DNA of 32,000 nt from Candidatus Thorarchaeota archaeon (GCA_008080745.1 SHMX01000003.1:516264-548263); one strand, 5' to 3'; numbered from the stretch's first letter, positions 1,625 to 8,781 are shown. The notes: generated from the letters alone by a model not told the origin. Numbers and translations are program-made.

Positions 1625-3325
1625 TTAGAAAATCTTGGGTTCGTCCCATTCTCCAAATACATCTCGCCATACATCCATGATTTCACCAATGGATGCATAT
1701 GCTCTAACAGCCTTGACGACCCAAGGCATGACGTTTTCATTGCCTTCAGAAGCCTTTCTAAGACCATCAAGGGCATCCTTAACCTTTGAACTATCACGTT
1801 CACTTCGGACTTTTTGAAGTCGTTCTACCTGTTTTCGTTCAACATCGGGATCAATCTTGAGGACAGGGATACTGATGTCTTCGCCCTCTAGAACATACTC
1901 GTTCACACCAACGATAATTCTGCGTTTTTGCTCAATCTCACGTTGATATCTGTAGGATGCTTCCGCAATCTCTCGTTGGAAGAATCCCTTTTCGATTGCA
2001 GGAATAACACCACCAAGTGCTTCCACTTTATCGAAGTATTTGTAGGTCTCTTCTTCCATCTGATTTGTAAGGGCTTCAACATAATACGATCCAGCAAGAG
2101 GGTCTATGGTATTGGGTACCCCACTCTCATGGGCAAGTACCTGTTGTGTACGTAATGCTACTCGCACTGCATCTTCGGTTGGCAGACAGAGTGCCTCATC
2201 CATACTATTGGTATGTAGGGATTGTGTTCCACCTAATACCGCTGCTAGAGCCTGATATGCAGTCCGAACGACATTTACAGTGGGTTGTTGAGCGGTCAAT
2301 GAACAACCAGCTGTCTGAGTGTGGAATCGCATCCAAAGAGAACGATCTTTTTCAGCTCCGAAACGCTCTTTCATCTCCCGAGCCCAGATTCTTCTGGCTG
2401 CACGGTATTTAGCCACCTCTTCGAAGATGTCATTATGTGAATTAAAGAAGAATGATAGACGAGGTGCAAAACTATCAACATCAAGCCCTCTCTCAACACC
2501 CCATTTCACATATTCGAGACCGTTCATAAGGGTGAATGCAAGCTCTTGAACAGCGGTAGAACCTGCCTCACGGATGTGATACCCCGAGATGGATATTGTA
2601 TTCCATCGTGGAATGTTATCGGTTGCATACTCGATGATATCCGTGATGATTCTAAGAGAGGGTTTTGGAGCTAGAATCCAGGACTTCTGTGCTTGATACT
2701 CCTTCAATAGGTCATTCTGAATGGTCCCACCAATCTTGTCAGCAGGAACCCCCTGTTTCTCAGCCGTCACCATGTACATTGCAAGAAGAATAGAAGCTGG
2801 AGCATTGATAGTCATAGATGTGGTTACTTTATCCAAGGGAATACCGTCAAAGAGAATCTCCATATCCTTCAGAGTATCAATTGCAACTCCGAGTTTTCCT
2901 ACCTCACCCAATGCATAAGGGTGATCCGAGTCGCGCCCGAACAGTGTTGGAAGATGAAAAGCAACACTAAGACCAGTCTGTCCATTTGCTAACAAGAACT
3001 TGTATCGCTGATTGGACTCCTCTGCAGTGCCCATTCCAGCAAATTGACGCATGGTCCAGATTCGACCTCGGTACATCGTTGATTGAACACCACGAGTATA
3101 GGGGTACTGACTGGGAAACCCGAGATCTCTGAGATAATCAAAGTCAGGGATATCATCTGGGGTGTATATCCGTTTTACGGGAACACTAGATGTTGATATG
3201 AATTCCTCCTCACGTTCAGGATACTTCTTCACGTGAGGTTCTAATGTTTCTTCTTCCCATTGTTTCTTGGCTTTGCGAATCTCTTCGAGATCTTCGCAGT
3301 TCTTGGATTTCTTCTTATCCGCCAT
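1625..3325 (-). CDS. B12-dependent acyl-CoA mutase, large (substrate-binding) subunit, methylmalonyl-CoA mutase family; ICM-type active-site residues
   Basis: [62 protein letters not shown]. No C-terminal B12-binding domain. ATG at 3325 (MADKKK) preferred over GTG at 3340. Confidence 0.95.
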
Positions 3326-3356
3326 GTGAACTCGCTCCACTCGATGACTAGGTAGA

Positions 3357-3379
3357 CGGCTTCAAGCCGATGTTATTAA
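3357..3379 (-). promoter_or_regulatory. Putative mutase promoter: TATA-like TTAATAAC with adjacent palindrome CGGCTT-C-AAGCCG
   Basis: Perfect 6-bp inverted repeat at 3357-3369, between the TATA-like element (3372-3379, minus) and the mutase start. Confidence 0.35.
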
Positions 3380-3480
3380 GCTATCCGATTTGGAGAAGAA
3401 ATCGTAACAGTAGAACATCGTATTAGTTATTAGGTTGAACAGTTTTTAGAGAGTATCATCTTATCAAGCGAGGGGAATTC

Positions 3481-4005
3481 ATGAAAAGACTGCAGGTACC
3501 GTTCATTGAACAACAACAGAACAATGATTGTGTGATTGCATGTCTAGAAATGATATTCGAATACTTGGTAAGAAAATATGATGAAATTGCGACATTTACT
3601 AGGAAAGAGCTATTGAAAATTATTGACATATCTATTATTGGTACGAGAATTTGTGATGTTGAATTACTGAATGAACATAAAAAGCTAGAAAAATATCGTT
3701 ACCAACCGAGATTTTTCTGCAGTCCTGGATCAATCCAACATATATGGGAACAAATAGATAAGGAAAGACCAATAATAGCATATATTATCAAGAAGTTCCT
3801 AGGAAATCAAATTAAACATGCTATACTGGTAAACGGGTATTCTAAGGATAAGACAAAATTATCAATATGTGACCCACTGGAAGAACAACCAACATTGCTA
3901 TCAACAGGACAATTCCAAGAGAGATGGAAGCTTTTCCATAAATACCATGTATACTATGAAGTAGTCGAAGTATTACAACCGAAAATAACCGAGTACATTG
4001 AATAG
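3481..4005 (+). CDS. Peptidase C39-like cysteine protease, standalone, no signal peptide
   Basis: LQVPFIEQQQNNDCVIACLEM (oxyanion Gln, catalytic Cys), KHAILVNGY (His), ICDP (Asp). AT-rich. Confidence 0.85.
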   Translation: MKRLQVPFIEQQQNNDCVIACLEMIFEYLVRKYDEIATFTRKELLKIIDISIIGTRICDVELLNEHKKLEKYRYQPRFFCSPGSIQHIWEQIDKERPIIAYIIKKFLGNQIKHAILVNGYSKDKTKLSICDPLEEQPTLLSTGQFQERWKLFHKYHVYYEVVEVLQPKITEYIE

Positions 4006-4020
4006 GCGGAGAAATTTGAA

Positions 4021-4965
4021 ATGAAAGCTCGTAAGCAAATTGAGGAGTATATATTCAAAACATATGGTCATCTAGTACTCCATGATCCTCCAGAATTCGA
4101 CGAAGAGCTATCGGTCTGGATTACCAAACTTCGTTCTGATTATCCGATATTAATAAGAGACGACAAAAGAAGAAAAAAAACACTCAGGTTCCTAAAAATT
4201 CCCTCATTAGGGCATGTTGTTTTTGATGAGGGATTACACCTGGTAAAAGGCAAAACAACTGAAGAAGAAGTAATTGAAGAACGGGTACGAGAATATTTGA
4301 ATATGTGGAGAGAATACGCAGAAGATATTGTGGTTAAAGCTTCAGCAGAAAGAATAGCAAGTTTAGGTGAAGTACGCTTGTCATTGAATCCGATTTTTGA
4401 ACTAATCAATTTCATCGATATCAATGGCTTCATATCCAAAGACCAGATATTTGAGAAAATGTCCAAAAGAAGGCACAAAATGAATCAGTATGTATCGCTA
4501 TTACAAGATTTAGAAATAATTCGACCCTATGAAGACAAGTTTCAGCCGGGTAACCTTTTCGTTGCATTTAAAGAGAGATTTCAGTCGGATTTTGATAAAT
4601 TCATCTCAGCAATATTCTCAGAAATTCTAAGAAAACGATATTCATACCTACGTGACGTTATTCATACACAAAATCTATCCAAGTTAATTAGTGTCGAGAA
4701 TGTAATATACTATCCTGAAATTCATACTGAAGAAGCAATCCCAAGGGATTACAAAACTCTAGCCAAAGAATATAGAATAGAATACCATTCGTCCATTAGT
4801 GAGCCAGCAATTGCCGCATATCTAAGGAAATTAGAGCAAATTGATTTGGTTAGCGAGGAAAATGGGTTATATCATGGAACTCAGTATATGAGAGAGAGGA
4901 TATCTGAGATAAGAACACAAATACCCTCACCTGAACATGTTTGGTCAGTTCCGAGTATCTATTAG
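4021..4965 (+). CDS. Hypothetical protein (314 aa) with two winged-helix-like segments
   Basis: 15 bp after the peptidase, same strand, AT-rich. ISKDQIFEKMSKRRHKMNQYVSLLQDLEIIRPYEDKFQPG and DYKTLAKEY..ISEPAIAAYLRKLEQIDLVSEENGLYHG look like wHTH recognition helix + wing (my pattern reading). Confidence 0.7.
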   Translation: MKARKQIEEYIFKTYGHLVLHDPPEFDEELSVWITKLRSDYPILIRDDKRRKKTLRFLKIPSLGHVVFDEGLHLVKGKTTEEEVIEERVREYLNMWREYAEDIVVKASAERIASLGEVRLSLNPIFELINFIDINGFISKDQIFEKMSKRRHKMNQYVSLLQDLEIIRPYEDKFQPGNLFVAFKERFQSDFDKFISAIFSEILRKRYSYLRDVIHTQNLSKLISVENVIYYPEIHTEEAIPRDYKTLAKEYRIEYHSSISEPAIAAYLRKLEQIDLVSEENGLYHGTQYMRERISEIRTQIPSPEHVWSVPSIY

Positions 4966-4977
4966 CACATATCCATA

Positions 4978-5541
4978 TCAATACTCAAATCCTTTCCTGG
5001 CATCTAATTTCTCTGTAGCAAAATAGTGTTTGACTTCGCGCATCTCTGTTACAAGGTCAGCTGCTTGGATAACCTCATCACGGGCATATCGTCCGGTCAT
5101 GATCAGCTCCACATCATCAGGTTTTTCCTTAATCAAAGCCAGTTGATCTTCAACAGAGATAAGATTCCACTCAACAGCCACATTGATCTCATCAAGAATG
5201 AGAACATCGCACTTGTGATCCCGCAGTGCCTTTTGAGCCATCTTCAGTCCATCCTGAGCCATCCTAATATCGATTGGGTCAGGGTTTTCTTTATCAACCC
5301 AAGATTGACGACCCATAGGAACGATGGTATAGTTTGGAATCTGCTCTATACTCCTGAATTCACCGTAGTTGATATCATCCCCGTCACCACGCCAAGCAAC
5401 TTTTGCTTTCATGAATGAGATGACCAGTACTTCTAATCCATGCCCTGCTGCTCGAAGTCCTGCTCCGAGTGCACAGGTTGTCTTCCCTTTTCCGTTCCCA
5501 GTATAAATTTGAACCTTCCCGGGTTTAGCTGGAGATACCAT
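4978..5541 (-). CDS. cobO: Cob(I)yrinic acid a,c-diamide adenosyltransferase (CobO/CobA/BtuR family)
   Basis: GKVQIYTGNGKGKTTCALG, DVLILDEIN, ELIMTGR, ADLVTEMREVKHYF, ARKGFEY. Confidence 0.96.
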   Translation of the reverse strand: MVSPAKPGKVQIYTGNGKGKTTCALGAGLRAAGHGLEVLVISFMKAKVAWRGDGDDINYGEFRSIEQIPNYTIVPMGRQSWVDKENPDPIDIRMAQDGLKMAQKALRDHKCDVLILDEINVAVEWNLISVEDQLALIKEKPDDVELIMTGRYARDEVIQAADLVTEMREVKHYFATEKLDARKGFEY

Positions 5542-5551
5542 TATCCCAACC

Positions 5552-6181
5552 TCACTGGTTGAATCTCTTAACTAATTTAGCAATCCGTTTTCCTAGACCC
5601 TCACTGGCTGCTATGGCTAACTCGTCCTCTTTTGCAATACGCCAACCACCCTCGTCCTTTTGCATGGCTCCAGAACCAAAAGGTCCGTCTTTAACAGGGC
5701 TACCTACACCGCCAGCAATAATCATACCATGTGCCAAGGCAAATCTATGCAAAAGTTCAATGACAGGTTCTTGACCCCCGTAACGGAGTCCCGCATAGGT
5801 GATTGCCCCAAAGATCTTATCACGGAGCTCATGATTCAACATCTTCATGGGTCGAGAACGGTCCATGAAGTCCTTGAGAACACCAGGAACCGATGTGAAA
5901 TAGGATGGTGCCGCTATAATGATGGCATCAGCCTGTTTGATCTGCTCTTCGATTTTTGGCATATCATCCTTATCGCTTTCAGGGCAAGGAGTCTTTCTAA
6001 CACAGGCATCACAACCAGTACACTGTCTAATCTCATACTCGCTTATGTCTAGAAGTAGTGTTTCACCCTTTGTCTCACCATCAGATAGTGCCTCTGAGGC
6101 TGCTTCTAACGCCTTCTGAAGAAGAAAACGTGTACTAGAGTTCTTTCGTTTTGGAGAACCGCATATACCTACAATTAACAT
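5552..6181 (-). CDS. Iron-sulfur flavoprotein (Isf)/flavodoxin family protein
   Basis: IVGICGSPKRKNSST FMN loop, CTGCDACVRKTPC (Cx2Cx2Cx5C) cluster motif, ADAIIIAAPSYF, LKDFMDR. Confidence 0.92.
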   Translation of the reverse strand: MLIVGICGSPKRKNSSTRFLLQKALEAASEALSDGETKGETLLLDISEYEIRQCTGCDACVRKTPCPESDKDDMPKIEEQIKQADAIIIAAPSYFTSVPGVLKDFMDRSRPMKMLNHELRDKIFGAITYAGLRYGGQEPVIELLHRFALAHGMIIAGGVGSPVKDGPFGSGAMQKDEGGWRIAKEDELAIAASEGLGKRIAKLVKRFNQ

Positions 6182-6226: not shown

Positions 6227-6967
6227 TTAGTGGGAAAGTGCATCGTTCAATGAATGGGCAATCTCACCTATGGCTTTTACAGCATCTAATCGACCCGATT
6301 CCTTGTATCCTGATACCGCAATGGTCATAGACCGAACCTTGAGTAATTGAACTTGATATCCACGTACTTTGACTACAGTAGGAACGATGTCAGTACTGGG
6401 TTTGATAGTACCCTTGACAATCTCTCTTGTTATCTTGTCCATATGACTCTGGGGAACATTTCCACACACCATCGTACCTTGAGAGTCGAAAACACCCACA
6501 TATGCAACACGATGGTTCTCAAGAACAGTATCGACCAATTCTGAAATCACATCAATAGTGGATGGGTCTGGACCGGTTAAATCGAACCGGAGATATCGCC
6601 GTACTAAAACATCGATCTCATCTATCTCGCCAATATCACCCGTCCAAACTCTAATGAGCTCCCCAAATCCCTTTGCAATAGCAGAACCGAGTGAAATTGC
6701 TTTCTTTCGAGCATTATCCAAATCGTCCTCTTTTTTCGTAGTTAGAACGACAGAGAATGAATCAAAGAATACAAAAATGTAGACTGTGCCATTCTGTTCT
6801 AAGGTATAGGGATGCTCCAAAATCGTACTGGTTCTGGAACGAAATAGGGTCGAACAGGCATTCACATTACCTGGTACCTTGATATCTTCAACCGGAGCCC
6901 CTCCCTCAATTCTTCTAGAGTATATTCGTTCACTTCCATCCTTAAGTACATAGATTTCTGATATCAT
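6227..6967 (-). CDS. Hypothetical protein, probable N-terminal longin-like + C-terminal roadblock-like domains
   Basis: N-term MISEIYVLKDGSERIYSRR (longin-like beta hairpin); C-term VLENHRVAYVGVFDSQGTMVCGN...IAVSG...DAVKAIGEIA (roadblock/profilin-like). Fold call is inference. Confidence 0.55.
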   Translation of the reverse strand: MISEIYVLKDGSERIYSRRIEGGAPVEDIKVPGNVNACSTLFRSRTSTILEHPYTLEQNGTVYIFVFFDSFSVVLTTKKEDDLDNARKKAISLGSAIAKGFGELIRVWTGDIGEIDEIDVLVRRYLRFDLTGPDPSTIDVISELVDTVLENHRVAYVGVFDSQGTMVCGNVPQSHMDKITREIVKGTIKPSTDIVPTVVKVRGYQVQLLKVRSMTIAVSGYKESGRLDAVKAIGEIAHSLNDALSH

Positions 6968-7112
6968 TTAGGCACACTGACCATATTTTTCTCGTTGATT
7001 TCGTTTCATAAGCCTTGTTTGTTGATACACAAGAGAGATATTCAAGAAAGAATATACTACGTGTAACAACGCCTTTTTATTATCAGTAAGGCGCGTATGA
7101 ATAGTGAGGACA

Positions 7113-7427
7113 ATGACAGAGAGAAGGAAGAAGAGGAAAAAGCGGCTAAAGCGTACACGCTACGATATCTATGCTGAACTCATCAGAGTCATCTATGTCT
7201 ATGGTTATTGTCCTCTAACTCGAGCCGCGAGATCTACCAATATGCCTGTGGATAGGGCAAAGACAACCATTGGTGAACTTCTCGAGAGAGGACTTTTAGA
7301 AGAGGAGGACGATGACGGCCAGATTGTTTACAAAGTAACAGTTCGGGGTCATCAATATCTAGAACTCTACAAGAGGATGGCTGGACTCGTAGGAATTCCA
7401 ATACCAGAACCAATCATCGGTATGTGA
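7113..7427 (+). CDS. Winged helix-turn-helix transcriptional regulator (ArnR1/HTH_45-like)
   Basis: KRTRYDIYAELI, LTRAARSTNM, ELLERGLLEE, YKVTVRGHQYLELY. ATG at 7113 after GAGGA preferred over GTG at 7104. Confidence 0.85.
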   Translation: MTERRKKRKKRLKRTRYDIYAELIRVIYVYGYCPLTRAARSTNMPVDRAKTTIGELLERGLLEEEDDDGQIVYKVTVRGHQYLELYKRMAGLVGIPIPEPIIGM

Positions 7428-7497: not shown

Positions 7498-7545
7498 CCC
7501 AATTTCATCAGATAATAGTGAATCATATGTTCAAAGGTGAACAAA

Positions 7546-8781
7546 ATGGCGGAAAAATACAAGAACGAATCAAGACTCGAACTCGGCCCCGTAGAGGGCG
7601 ATCTAGAGTTGGACAGGGTTGACAGAATCTATCCCAAAGAGGGAGAAGAGATTGTTGTCAACGGAAAAATCACGATAAAAGGTGAAACCGAAATAGAAGG
7701 AACGCTAAGGGCTCATAGTATTGAGCTCAAGAGCAGAGACCGACTCACGATTAATGGAGATCTGATTCTACAGGGTGATGCATCGGCAAAAAGGGGTAGC
7801 CTAATAGTTGAAGGTTCTGCAACAGGACGTCATTTCGAAGTTGGCGGAAGTTTCAGTGTAGGAGAAGACCTGCAATGTGAAGCAGCCCGCGGCGGAGGAT
7901 CGGTCAAAGTTGTAGGTAATGCGACTGCTCAGAGAATCATGGGTGGTGGCTCTGTAAAAATCGAAGGAGATGCCAAAGTTGCTCGACTTCAAGGTGGCGG
8001 CTCAGTAAAAGTAGGCCGACTCATAACTTCTGATGAACTCAGTGCAGGAGGTTCTGGAAAGGTCAACCAAGGTAAGATTGGGAAAGTTGAGGTCGGAGGC
8101 AGTTTCAAATCAGTTGGGCCAGTAGAGGTCGAAGATATTGATGTTGGCGGCTCCGTTAAGCTAGCAGGCGGTTCCAAAGTAGAGATGATAGATGTTGGAG
8201 GCGCATTGAAAACTGACGGCGATTTGGAGTTCGGAGAGATCGATGTAGGTGGAGCTGTTAAAATTTCTGGGAACGCAAGAGGCAAGACGATAGACGTTGG
8301 AGGTACTGTTGTGATTGGCGGAACTCTCCATATTGGTAATATCGATGTCGGCGGAAAGGTAGAAGTTGATGAAGATCTCCACTGTGAACGAAAGATCAAA
8401 GTCGGTGGAACTGTCAGTGTTGGTGGAAGAATCCACACGTATCGAATAGTTGTTGGTGGAAGAATCGATGCAGAATACATCAAGGCCACTGACGGATTCC
8501 GTGTAGGTAAGAGAGCAGAAGTCACTGGTAATGTCGAATCGGGTGAGATTCTTATCCGAGAACGTGCTCGCACAAAATCTCTCTATGGTGAGGAAATCAG
8601 AATCGAAGAGCGCTCTCGAGTAGGAGCAGTATACGGACGCACTATCTATATTGAACGCGACGCAATTGTCGAGGGTGAAGTCCTGTATACCGAAGCCCTT
8701 GATTCAGAAGATGGTGTCAAGTTCAGAGTGGAGCCAAAGAAGGTAGACCAACTTCCTCCACCAGAACAAGTCTTAGAGTAG
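7546..8781 (+). CDS. Extended bactofilin-like (polymer-forming cytoskeletal, DUF583-like) beta-helix protein
   Basis: About 13 tandem ~17-aa repeats of GG(S/A/T)V(K/V)..G......IDV, with bactofilin-like ends (VEGDLEL, VTGNVESGEILI, VEGEVLY). ATG at 7546 after GGTGA. Confidence 0.82.
   Translation: MAEKYKNESRLELGPVEGDLELDRVDRIYPKEGEEIVVNGKITIKGETEIEGTLRAHSIELKSRDRLTINGDLILQGDASAKRGSLIVEGSATGRHFEVGGSFSVGEDLQCEAARGGGSVKVVGNATAQRIMGGGSVKIEGDAKVARLQGGGSVKVGRLITSDELSAGGSGKVNQGKIGKVEVGGSFKSVGPVEVEDIDVGGSVKLAGGSKVEMIDVGGALKTDGDLEFGEIDVGGAVKISGNARGKTIDVGGTVVIGGTLHIGNIDVGGKVEVDEDLHCERKIKVGGTVSVGGRIHTYRIVVGGRIDAEYIKATDGFRVGKRAEVTGNVESGEILIRERARTKSLYGEEIRIEERSRVGAVYGRTIYIERDAIVEGEVLYTEALDSEDGVKFRVEPKKVDQLPPPEQVLE

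Follow-up and report, generated by a model that had tools for sequence, protein, structure and literature searches.

The gene pair and its two products

The DNA analysed here is a 32,000-nt window, namely the whole stretch SHMX01000003.1:516264-548263 of the Candidatus Thorarchaeota archaeon assembly GCA_008080745.1 (positions are counted from its first letter), and the subject is a pair of coupled genes on its plus strand, encoding a C39-type cysteine peptidase and a partner protein with two predicted winged helices. The stand-alone protease gene occupies positions 3481-4005 (174 aa) and is followed, after a 15-nt spacer with a GGAG-type ribosome-binding site (4006-4020, plus strand), by the partner gene at 4021-4965 (314 aa); many other copies have a 4-nt overlap of the genes in place of the spacer. 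The four genes flanking the pair are on the minus strand: a methylmalonyl-CoA mutase gene on the left (1625-3340; PF01642, E-value 1.7e-226) and, on the right, a gene for a cobA-type ATP:corrinoid adenosyltransferase (4978-5541; PF02572, E-value 1.6e-54), a flavin mononucleotide (FMN) reductase gene (5552-6181) and an open reading frame (ORF) of 246 aa (6227-6967). The original prediction, made from the sequence of the window, had described two coupled genes separated by 15 bp and inserted in reverse orientation among four minus-strand genes, as well as a low G+C content compared to the flanks, and both descriptions were confirmed, the former by the ORF calls. In particular, the G+C content of the pair was 34.75% (33.0% for the protease gene and 35.7% for the partner gene), compared to 41.2% in the 3.16-Mb genome and about 44-47% in the flanks, which places the pair among the lowest 1.2% of all 1485-nt genome windows. 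The G+C content at third codon positions deviated likewise (0.30-0.31 in the pair vs. 0.36-0.40 in the neighbouring genes).

The protease matched the profiles PF03412 (42.3 bits, cut-off 22; E-value 8e-11) and PF13529 (39.2 bits, cut-off 24; E-value 1.3e-9). The intact Gln/Cys/His/Asp set previously claimed for it was found in full, comprising Gln11 (the oxyanion Gln upstream of the Cys; codon 3511-3513), Cys17 (3529-3531), His113 (3817-3819) and Asp131 (3871-3873). Across a nine-member alignment of Asgard, Bathyarchaeota and Woesearchaeota sequences, Cys17, Cys21, Pro97, His113, Pro132 and Trp149 were invariant, and Asp131 was kept in eight of the nine cross-phylum homologues. No match to a zinc metallopeptidase family (M78/COG2856, HEXXH) was found for this enzyme, which has the papain fold of the C39 peptidases. 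Its nearest solved sequences include the effector or toxin proteases AvrRpt2, CdiA-CT/StbD and GtgE, all of these matches being weak. The gene is the sole full C39 gene of the genome; a second, partial match to Peptidase_C39_2 (profile positions 90-142, 28.4 bits) lies at G000:C4:266559-266735, inside a 507-aa open frame.

Regarding its setting, neither a hydrophobic N-terminus nor a membrane segment was found in the protease (maximum 19-residue Kyte-Doolittle score of 1.28), and no ATP-binding cassette (ABC) ATPase was encoded in the window, the nearest one on the contig being more than 150 kb away. Moreover, no precursor peptide gene or signal peptide was present in the window or in the contexts of the other copies, near which no ABC_tran match was obtained either, save for an unrelated ABC-2 exporter 1 kb downstream of the pair at one locus (L091). 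The claim that signal peptide, ABC exporter and precursor were all missing from the neighbourhood was therefore upheld, and the usual role of C39 peptidases in leader-peptide export does not fit a protease that has no membrane segment and no ABC ATPase in the window. Judged by its sequence and catalytic residues, the protein is assigned to the C39 family, outside the exporter and precursor context that is usual for this family.

None of the families in Pfam, NCBIfam, PADLOC or PHROGs reached threshold for the partner, which, as far as its sequence can tell, is in no described family, housekeeping families included. Its AlphaFold2 model, built from a 118-sequence alignment, was of high confidence (predicted local distance difference test, pLDDT, 96.7; predicted template modelling score, pTM, 0.91) and agreed with the earlier description of an unrecognised N-terminal region followed by two winged-helix-like segments. 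According to this model, the protein consists of an N-domain (aa 1-80; 4021-4260), a long helix (aa 82-113; 4264-4359), winged helix 1 (aa 116-186; 4366-4578), a further helix (aa 191-214; 4591-4662), winged helix 2 (aa 217-298; 4669-4914) and a conserved C-tail (aa 299-314; 4915-4962), all encoded on the plus strand. Structure searches returned matches to the winged helices only, with VIA-align Z-scores of 8-10.3 to domains of Fur/PerR, MotA, IclR, ORC/Cdc6 and JetB (for example, chain 2xig_A with a Z of 10.3, a root-mean-square deviation of 2.3 A and 80 aligned residues) and Foldseek E-values that were all above 6e-3. The third helix of winged helix 1 begins with a basic run (residues 148-153, SKRRHK), and the modelled domains suggest that the partner may bind DNA.

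In the predicted N-domain, a helix (residues 2-15) packs against an antiparallel sheet of four strands that includes a long hairpin; the domain was modelled with confidence also when taken alone (pLDDT 93.5). No convincing solved relative was found for it, its best Z of 5.8 being below the level expected by chance in such searches; in the Atlas, its neighbours (TM 0.55-0.62) were bacterial proteins, small and without a name, and N-terminal parts of certain DNA methyltransferases, and a feature search of the ESM Atlas gave no usable match. An assignment of this domain as a cystatin- or PepSY-like inhibitor was considered and rejected: the YpeB/PepSY-type chains reached a Z of only 5.8 with a root-mean-square deviation of 9.9 A over 95 residues, the cystatin-like hits were designs at a Z of about 5.2 with Foldseek E-values of at least 0.13, and the predicted interface with the protease does not use residues 1-80. 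Two further candidates were discarded as well, namely paralogues of the partner or other tandem winged-helix cassettes in the genome, where a broad profile matched the window copy alone (E-value up to 10), and fusion forms, as the best 150 matches of an exhaustive search without length filter were all of 405 aa or less and the 405-aa one had no C39 part.

Distribution, insertion and decay of the pair

A profile search of 1.84 billion representatives retrieved 237 members of the partner family with E-values up to 1e-3, of which 38 had E-values up to 1e-30, and nearly all of them were 300-330 aa long. The named members come from Lokiarchaeota, Bathyarchaeota, Woesearchaeota, Marsarchaeota, Thermoplasmata and Archaeoglobales metagenome-assembled genomes (MAGs), being all archaeal and all annotated as 'hypothetical protein'. 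The closest public record belongs to a MAG labelled Candidatus Lokiarchaeota, with proteins 80-81% identical and the same synteny. With the close-family profile, the partner was detected in 13 of the 85 other genomes of the window's family, whose carriers span nine genera when the window's own genome is included, and in none of the 315 other genomes of the phylum; in the phylum of the Woesearchaeota carrier (DPANN), it was found in 5 of 401 sampled genomes. The distribution of the module is, thus, rare and patchy. A viral origin was tried and rejected, since neither protein had a match in PHROGs and the close-family profile found no relative in IMG/VR.

The expectation that homologues would stay paired across archaea was borne out. 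A C39 homologue lies directly upstream of the partner gene in the Asgard, Bathyarchaeota and metagenomic copies, and a C39-like ORF occupies this position in all five DPANN copies; the upstream proteases of Marsarchaeota and Thermoplasmata had weaker scores and retained the Cys, His, Asp-Pro and Trp. Furthermore, every match to the protease profile, found in 11 of the 86 genomes of the family, adjoins a partner gene, none being solitary. A protease gene stood beside the partner in 12 of 14 lineages assessed, intact in eight of them and broken in four, and was missing in the remaining two, where the partner sat beside a Rio kinase gene (G325, locus L011) or beside unrelated small genes in a contig rich in insertion sequences and restriction-modification genes. 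The broken proteases, each next to an intact partner, carried a frameshift (L002/L006), a stop plus a frameshift (L009), a displaced N-terminus (L013) or a frameshift seen in two independent assemblies (L024/L025). A protease that is never alone and is often broken while its partner is intact represents the asymmetry expected of a toxin and its antidote. Apart from this, the metagenomic contig L024 has an intergenic sequence of 31-44 nt occurring four times (at 698, 1575, 3601 and 4622), on both sides of the pair, as a repeat family.

The pair was also anticipated to be a horizontally moving unit, a view that the comparison of sites supports. The cobA gene is directly followed by the mutase gene, leaving an empty site, in 25 of 30 related genomes, in which the tblastn matches of both genes were mostly about 80-140 nt apart (160-572 nt in three of them). 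Three of these 25 genomes bear the pair elsewhere (G325, G330 and G318), three other relatives gave no mutase match within the fetched stretch, and only the window genome and its sister species have the pair at the cobA/mutase site. The left edge of the host sequence is marked by a diverged copy of the motif ATATTAACTGTTCGATT (3372-3392, minus strand) in the mutase promoter region, which is kept in the cobA-mutase spacer of relatives without the insert, and the right junction comprises the 12 nt between the stop codons of the partner and of cobA (4966-4977); from these two edges, the insert is estimated at about 1.58 kb. It contains the two genes and their 5' region, and nothing else. The 5' non-coding part (3393-3480, plus strand; the left junction is approximate) does not occur at the empty sites and probably holds a promoter and a ribosome-binding site, as judged from its sequence: a GAGGGG motif lies 6 nt 5' of the protease ATG, and the protease gene of other Asgard copies is preceded, at about 60-70 nt, by a shared GATTGAATAT motif. 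No flanking direct repeats of 14 nt or longer were found at the window copy.

The contexts of the other copies vary, including ribosomal protein and RNase genes, PCNA/primase/GINS, leucyl-tRNA synthetase, helicase and histone genes. Direct repeats flank three of the copies outside the window, and none of the three enclosed segments contains an integrase. One of them is in G318, where the repeat is a perfect 36-bp copy of the tRNA-Leu(TAG) 3' end and the enclosed genes are a 558-aa TnpB, the protease and the partner; the tRNA-Leu of its relatives lies about 55 nt from the next conserved gene. In the second case, a Bathyarchaeota contig, a 20-bp tRNA-Gln 3' repeat encloses the pair alone, and in the third, from a Woesearchaeota genome, the pair and one further gene lie within a repeat that is exact over 19 bp and imperfect over about 45 bp. 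The further gene encodes 226 aa without a family match, follows the pair within the repeats (L019:6976-7656 and L020:1917-2597) and may be a lineage-specific third component. As regards the tRNA-Leu site, extra 26-31-nt copies of the tRNA-Leu 3' end were observed in the relatives L096, L099 and L100, together with inserts of variable length before the next conserved gene; because other relatives bear different inserts and tRNA-end fragments there, the site is a recurrent insertion hotspot in this archaeal family. Two loci from different samples (L026 and L027) have the pair and an adjacent tRNA-Gln gene that are near-identical base by base, with wholly different flanks, which suggests that the tRNA-Gln gene may travel with the cassette. 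In addition, TnpB adjoins the pair in three genera, even though only 7-12 TnpB matches exist per genome. Several contigs of G383 and G384 carry many frames of roughly 100 aa whose similarity to the 558-aa TnpB is confined to its final 100 residues; by their sequence, these resemble mini-elements in which the 3' (guide-RNA) end of the transposon has been kept.

The pair was AT-richer than its flanks in all 13 loci (13/13). Between the window genome and the sister species, pS was 0.64-0.67 and pN was 0.10, giving omega values of about 0.08 for the protease and 0.06 for the partner, which are rough as dS is saturated (above 1). Both genes are under purifying selection. The window copy being old and maintained, its low G+C content is to be taken as a standing trait of the module and not as a sign of recent arrival.

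As for the remainder of the window, it also encodes a Roadblock/LC7 domain protein (934-1296), a small HTH_45 winged-helix protein (7104-7427) and a 414-aa protein with a bactofilin domain (7537-8781). No tRNA genes were found in the window, and an Rfam scan of positions 2500-6000 gave no match with E-values up to 0.1. No RNA read sets containing the pair were listed, the only two matching sets being DNA runs of one marine-sediment study, from which the present DNA may itself originate. Five short contigs of the same assembly (C14, C15, C17, C18 and C19; 2.4-14.6 kb) have a G+C content of 62-65%, compared to about 41% elsewhere, and are probably contaminant sequence in the MAG.

Predicted complex and competing explanations

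The complex of protease and partner was predicted with an interface score (ipSAE) of 0.85 (0.74, 0.85 and 0.86 in the individual runs), compared to 0.01 for the best control, the mark applied to this score being reached by 58 of 80 solved complexes and by 2 of 110 mismatched pairs. The pLDDT of the partner in the complex was at least 87. This controlled prediction supports that both proteins would bind each other. In the best run, the protease contacts the long helix of the partner (residues 91-102), the third helix of winged helix 1 (151-163), the helix at 205-213 and the C-tail.

Taken together with the preceding data, the reading that we favour, although held tentatively and at somewhat less than even odds, is that the pair is a mobile conflict cassette of the toxin-antitoxin or abortive-infection type, in which the protease would be the effector and the partner a regulator that restrains it. 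The protease would attack an intracellular protein, of the host or of an invader, probably at a site of small residues (Gly-Gly-like) such as other C39 enzymes cleave, and the co-translated 314-aa partner would bind it tightly, hold it in check and probably also repress the operon through its winged helices. This reading is favoured because of the strict linkage of both genes, the survival of the partner alone, the recurrent inactivation of the protease, the gene coupling and the predicted complex, to which are added the AT-richness, the patchy spread, the solitary insertion among housekeeping genes, the presence on integrated elements, the purifying selection on both genes and the bacterial precedent of a C39 peptidase serving as an intracellular toxin held by a binding protein. 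Moreover, the genes are adjacent, co-oriented and coupled, conserved as a pair and horizontally mobile, as required of type II toxin-antitoxin systems.

Several observations weigh against it. Neither protein had a family in PADLOC-DB 2.0.0, even with E-values up to 10, or a match in PHROGs, and most of the inspected copies were alone among housekeeping genes instead of in the defence islands that had been put forward as a check. Typical antitoxins of type II are labile, whereas the partner is a large (314 aa), well-folded protein. As for the complex, the pose is uncertain because the three runs share no contacts (their agreement being at least 0%), the contacts listed for the predicted interface include neither Cys17 nor His113, and the notion that the interface would be the conserved part of the proteins proved false, its positions being less conserved than the rest in both alignments. 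Toxicity, restraint and neutralisation by the partner, a trigger and a role in defence are inferred from genes and models, some of the protease frameshifts could be assembly errors of the MAGs, and the long retention of the window copy (dS above 1) would also fit a domesticated role.

A different use of the same two proteins would be a protease-gated transcription switch of the ImmA/ImmR, IrrE/DdrO, CapP/CapH or BlaR1/BlaI kind, in which the partner would be a repressor that is cleaved after a signal, de-repressing its targets. We regard such a switch as unlikely, even if it is the most plausible of the alternatives. A protease and a DNA-binding-type protein do share one operon here, several copies lie on integrated elements, and the winged helices, the first of them with its basic third helix (148-153, SKRRHK), resemble the repressor domains of Fur/PerR, IclR and MecI at Z-scores of 7.7-10. 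Of the protease-activated switch proposed earlier, the binding part is in line with the complex prediction; the cleavage of the partner is not indicated, since the catalytic residues Cys17 and His113 fall outside the predicted interface and the partner family has no conspicuous conserved Gly-Gly site. Besides, there are no further element genes to be controlled at most loci, the Bathyarchaeota copy within direct repeats being the pair alone, and a broken protease next to an intact partner would lock the switch off, yet this state recurs. More improbable is that the pair serves the mobile element itself, in its integration, excision or maintenance at tRNA genes, with a minimal self-mobilising cassette and a new recombination machinery as the extreme form; that the two proteins themselves mediate integration is given very little credit. 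The repeat-bounded cassettes without integrase (in G318, the Bathyarchaeota contig and the Woesearchaeota genome), the recurrent use of the tRNA-Leu site and the adjacency of TnpB in three genera, despite so few TnpB matches per genome, speak for a role of this sort. However, no fold known for cutting or joining DNA is present in either protein, the peptidase has kept all of its catalytic residues and repeats of 14 nt or longer are absent from the flanks of the window copy. Integrase-less remnants bounded by repeats are well known, being either mobilised in trans or left by deletion, and addiction modules typically survive in them.

Two explanations of lower standing invoke either ordinary physiology or no function at all. 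The protease could be a common C39 maturation enzyme whose substrate, be it a leader peptide or a protein, is encoded at another site, the partner being a regulator dedicated to this enzyme. In favour of this, the protease belongs fully to the C39 family and also shows the Gln and the Cys-x3-Cys motif that are typical of leader peptidases. The chances of this explanation are slim, given that no ABC exporter, signal peptide or precursor gene appears in the window or in the other contexts and that a pathway fixed in the physiology of the cell would not be expected to be so patchy and mobile in its distribution, or to lose its protease so often. Finally, the low G+C content and the broken protease of some relatives would suit a decaying remnant of foreign DNA without current function in the window genome, an option to which we attach hardly any weight, as both genes are intact in this genome and in the sister species, with omega values of 0.06-0.08.

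Relation to known systems and significance

No published description of the pair was found by full-text literature searches, nor by term look-ups in the text available from two archaeal/Asgard defence surveys. Among the known proteins, the protease shares the sequence family of the C39 domains, which are double-glycine leader peptidases, of the PCAT/AMS ABC exporters (ComA, LahT and PCAT1), with the papain-like Gln/Cys/His/Asp set and the Cys-x3-Cys motif, and differs from them in being stand-alone and cytoplasmic, without an ABC exporter or precursor peptide gene, and in being always coupled to a tandem winged-helix protein. The bacterial precedent for the favoured conflict cassette is StbD-CT, a toxin from the contact-dependent inhibition (CDI) system of Citrobacter rodentium, which is a C39 peptidase that cleaves GyrB/ParE at Gly-Gly and is bound by its immunity protein StbI opposite to, or away from, the active site (bioRxiv 10.64898/2026.05.07.723447); furthermore, Tox-PL-C39 domains occur in polymorphic toxins (PMC3482391). 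A cytoplasmic C39 peptidase bound off its active site by a cognate protein would thus be the common feature, which in the present pair is only predicted, and the sequence similarity of the CdiA-CT/StbD chains to the protease is weak (E-values of 0.07-0.5). In contrast to StbD-CT and Tox-PL-C39, which are C-terminal tips of secreted bacterial proteins and are paired with small beta-sheet immunity proteins, the archaeal pair is an intracellular two-gene operon with a 314-aa winged-helix partner and no delivery domain.

The two-gene logic of a protease and a DNA-binding fold, often on mobile elements, is the same as in ImmA/ImmR, IrrE/DdrO, CapP/CapH, COG2856-Xre, BlaR1/BlaI and MecR1/MecI. However, these systems combine a zinc metallopeptidase with a small repressor, an Xre or winged-helix protein, that is cleaved, while the present pair combines a cysteine peptidase of papain fold with a partner made up of a new N-domain and two winged helices, and cleavage of this partner is not indicated. 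On the other hand, type II and type IV toxin-antitoxin modules with winged-helix antitoxins (AbiEi/AbiEii) present the same compact, translationally coupled, AT-rich pair with a patchy and mobile occurrence, in which the presumed toxin is likewise never alone and the presumed antitoxin bears domains of DNA-binding type. The difference from these modules is that the toxin would be a protease, instead of a nuclease, kinase or nucleotidyltransferase, and that no PADLOC model is related to it.

With somewhat greater reserve than for the pair itself, we propose that these copies represent a class of protease-based toxin-antitoxin or abortive-infection systems that is spread across the archaea and has so far escaped annotation. 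In this class, a C39 peptidase would be the effector, the winged-helix partner would provide both restraint and sensing, and the whole would be an integrase-less cassette that enters tRNA genes and other sites. The partner defines a protein family for which there is no Pfam model, and the copies without integrase that are bounded by tRNA repeats raise the question of how such mini-cassettes move. For experiments, the module has the advantage of being compact (about 1.5 kb), of encoding two proteins that are both soluble and of having a structural model of high confidence. The charting of immunity and toxin-antitoxin biology in archaea is still poor and, if the proposal is true, a protease-based effector class would be added to the archaeal repertoire, represented in Asgard, DPANN, Bathyarchaeota, Marsarchaeota, Thermoplasmata and Archaeoglobales MAGs.

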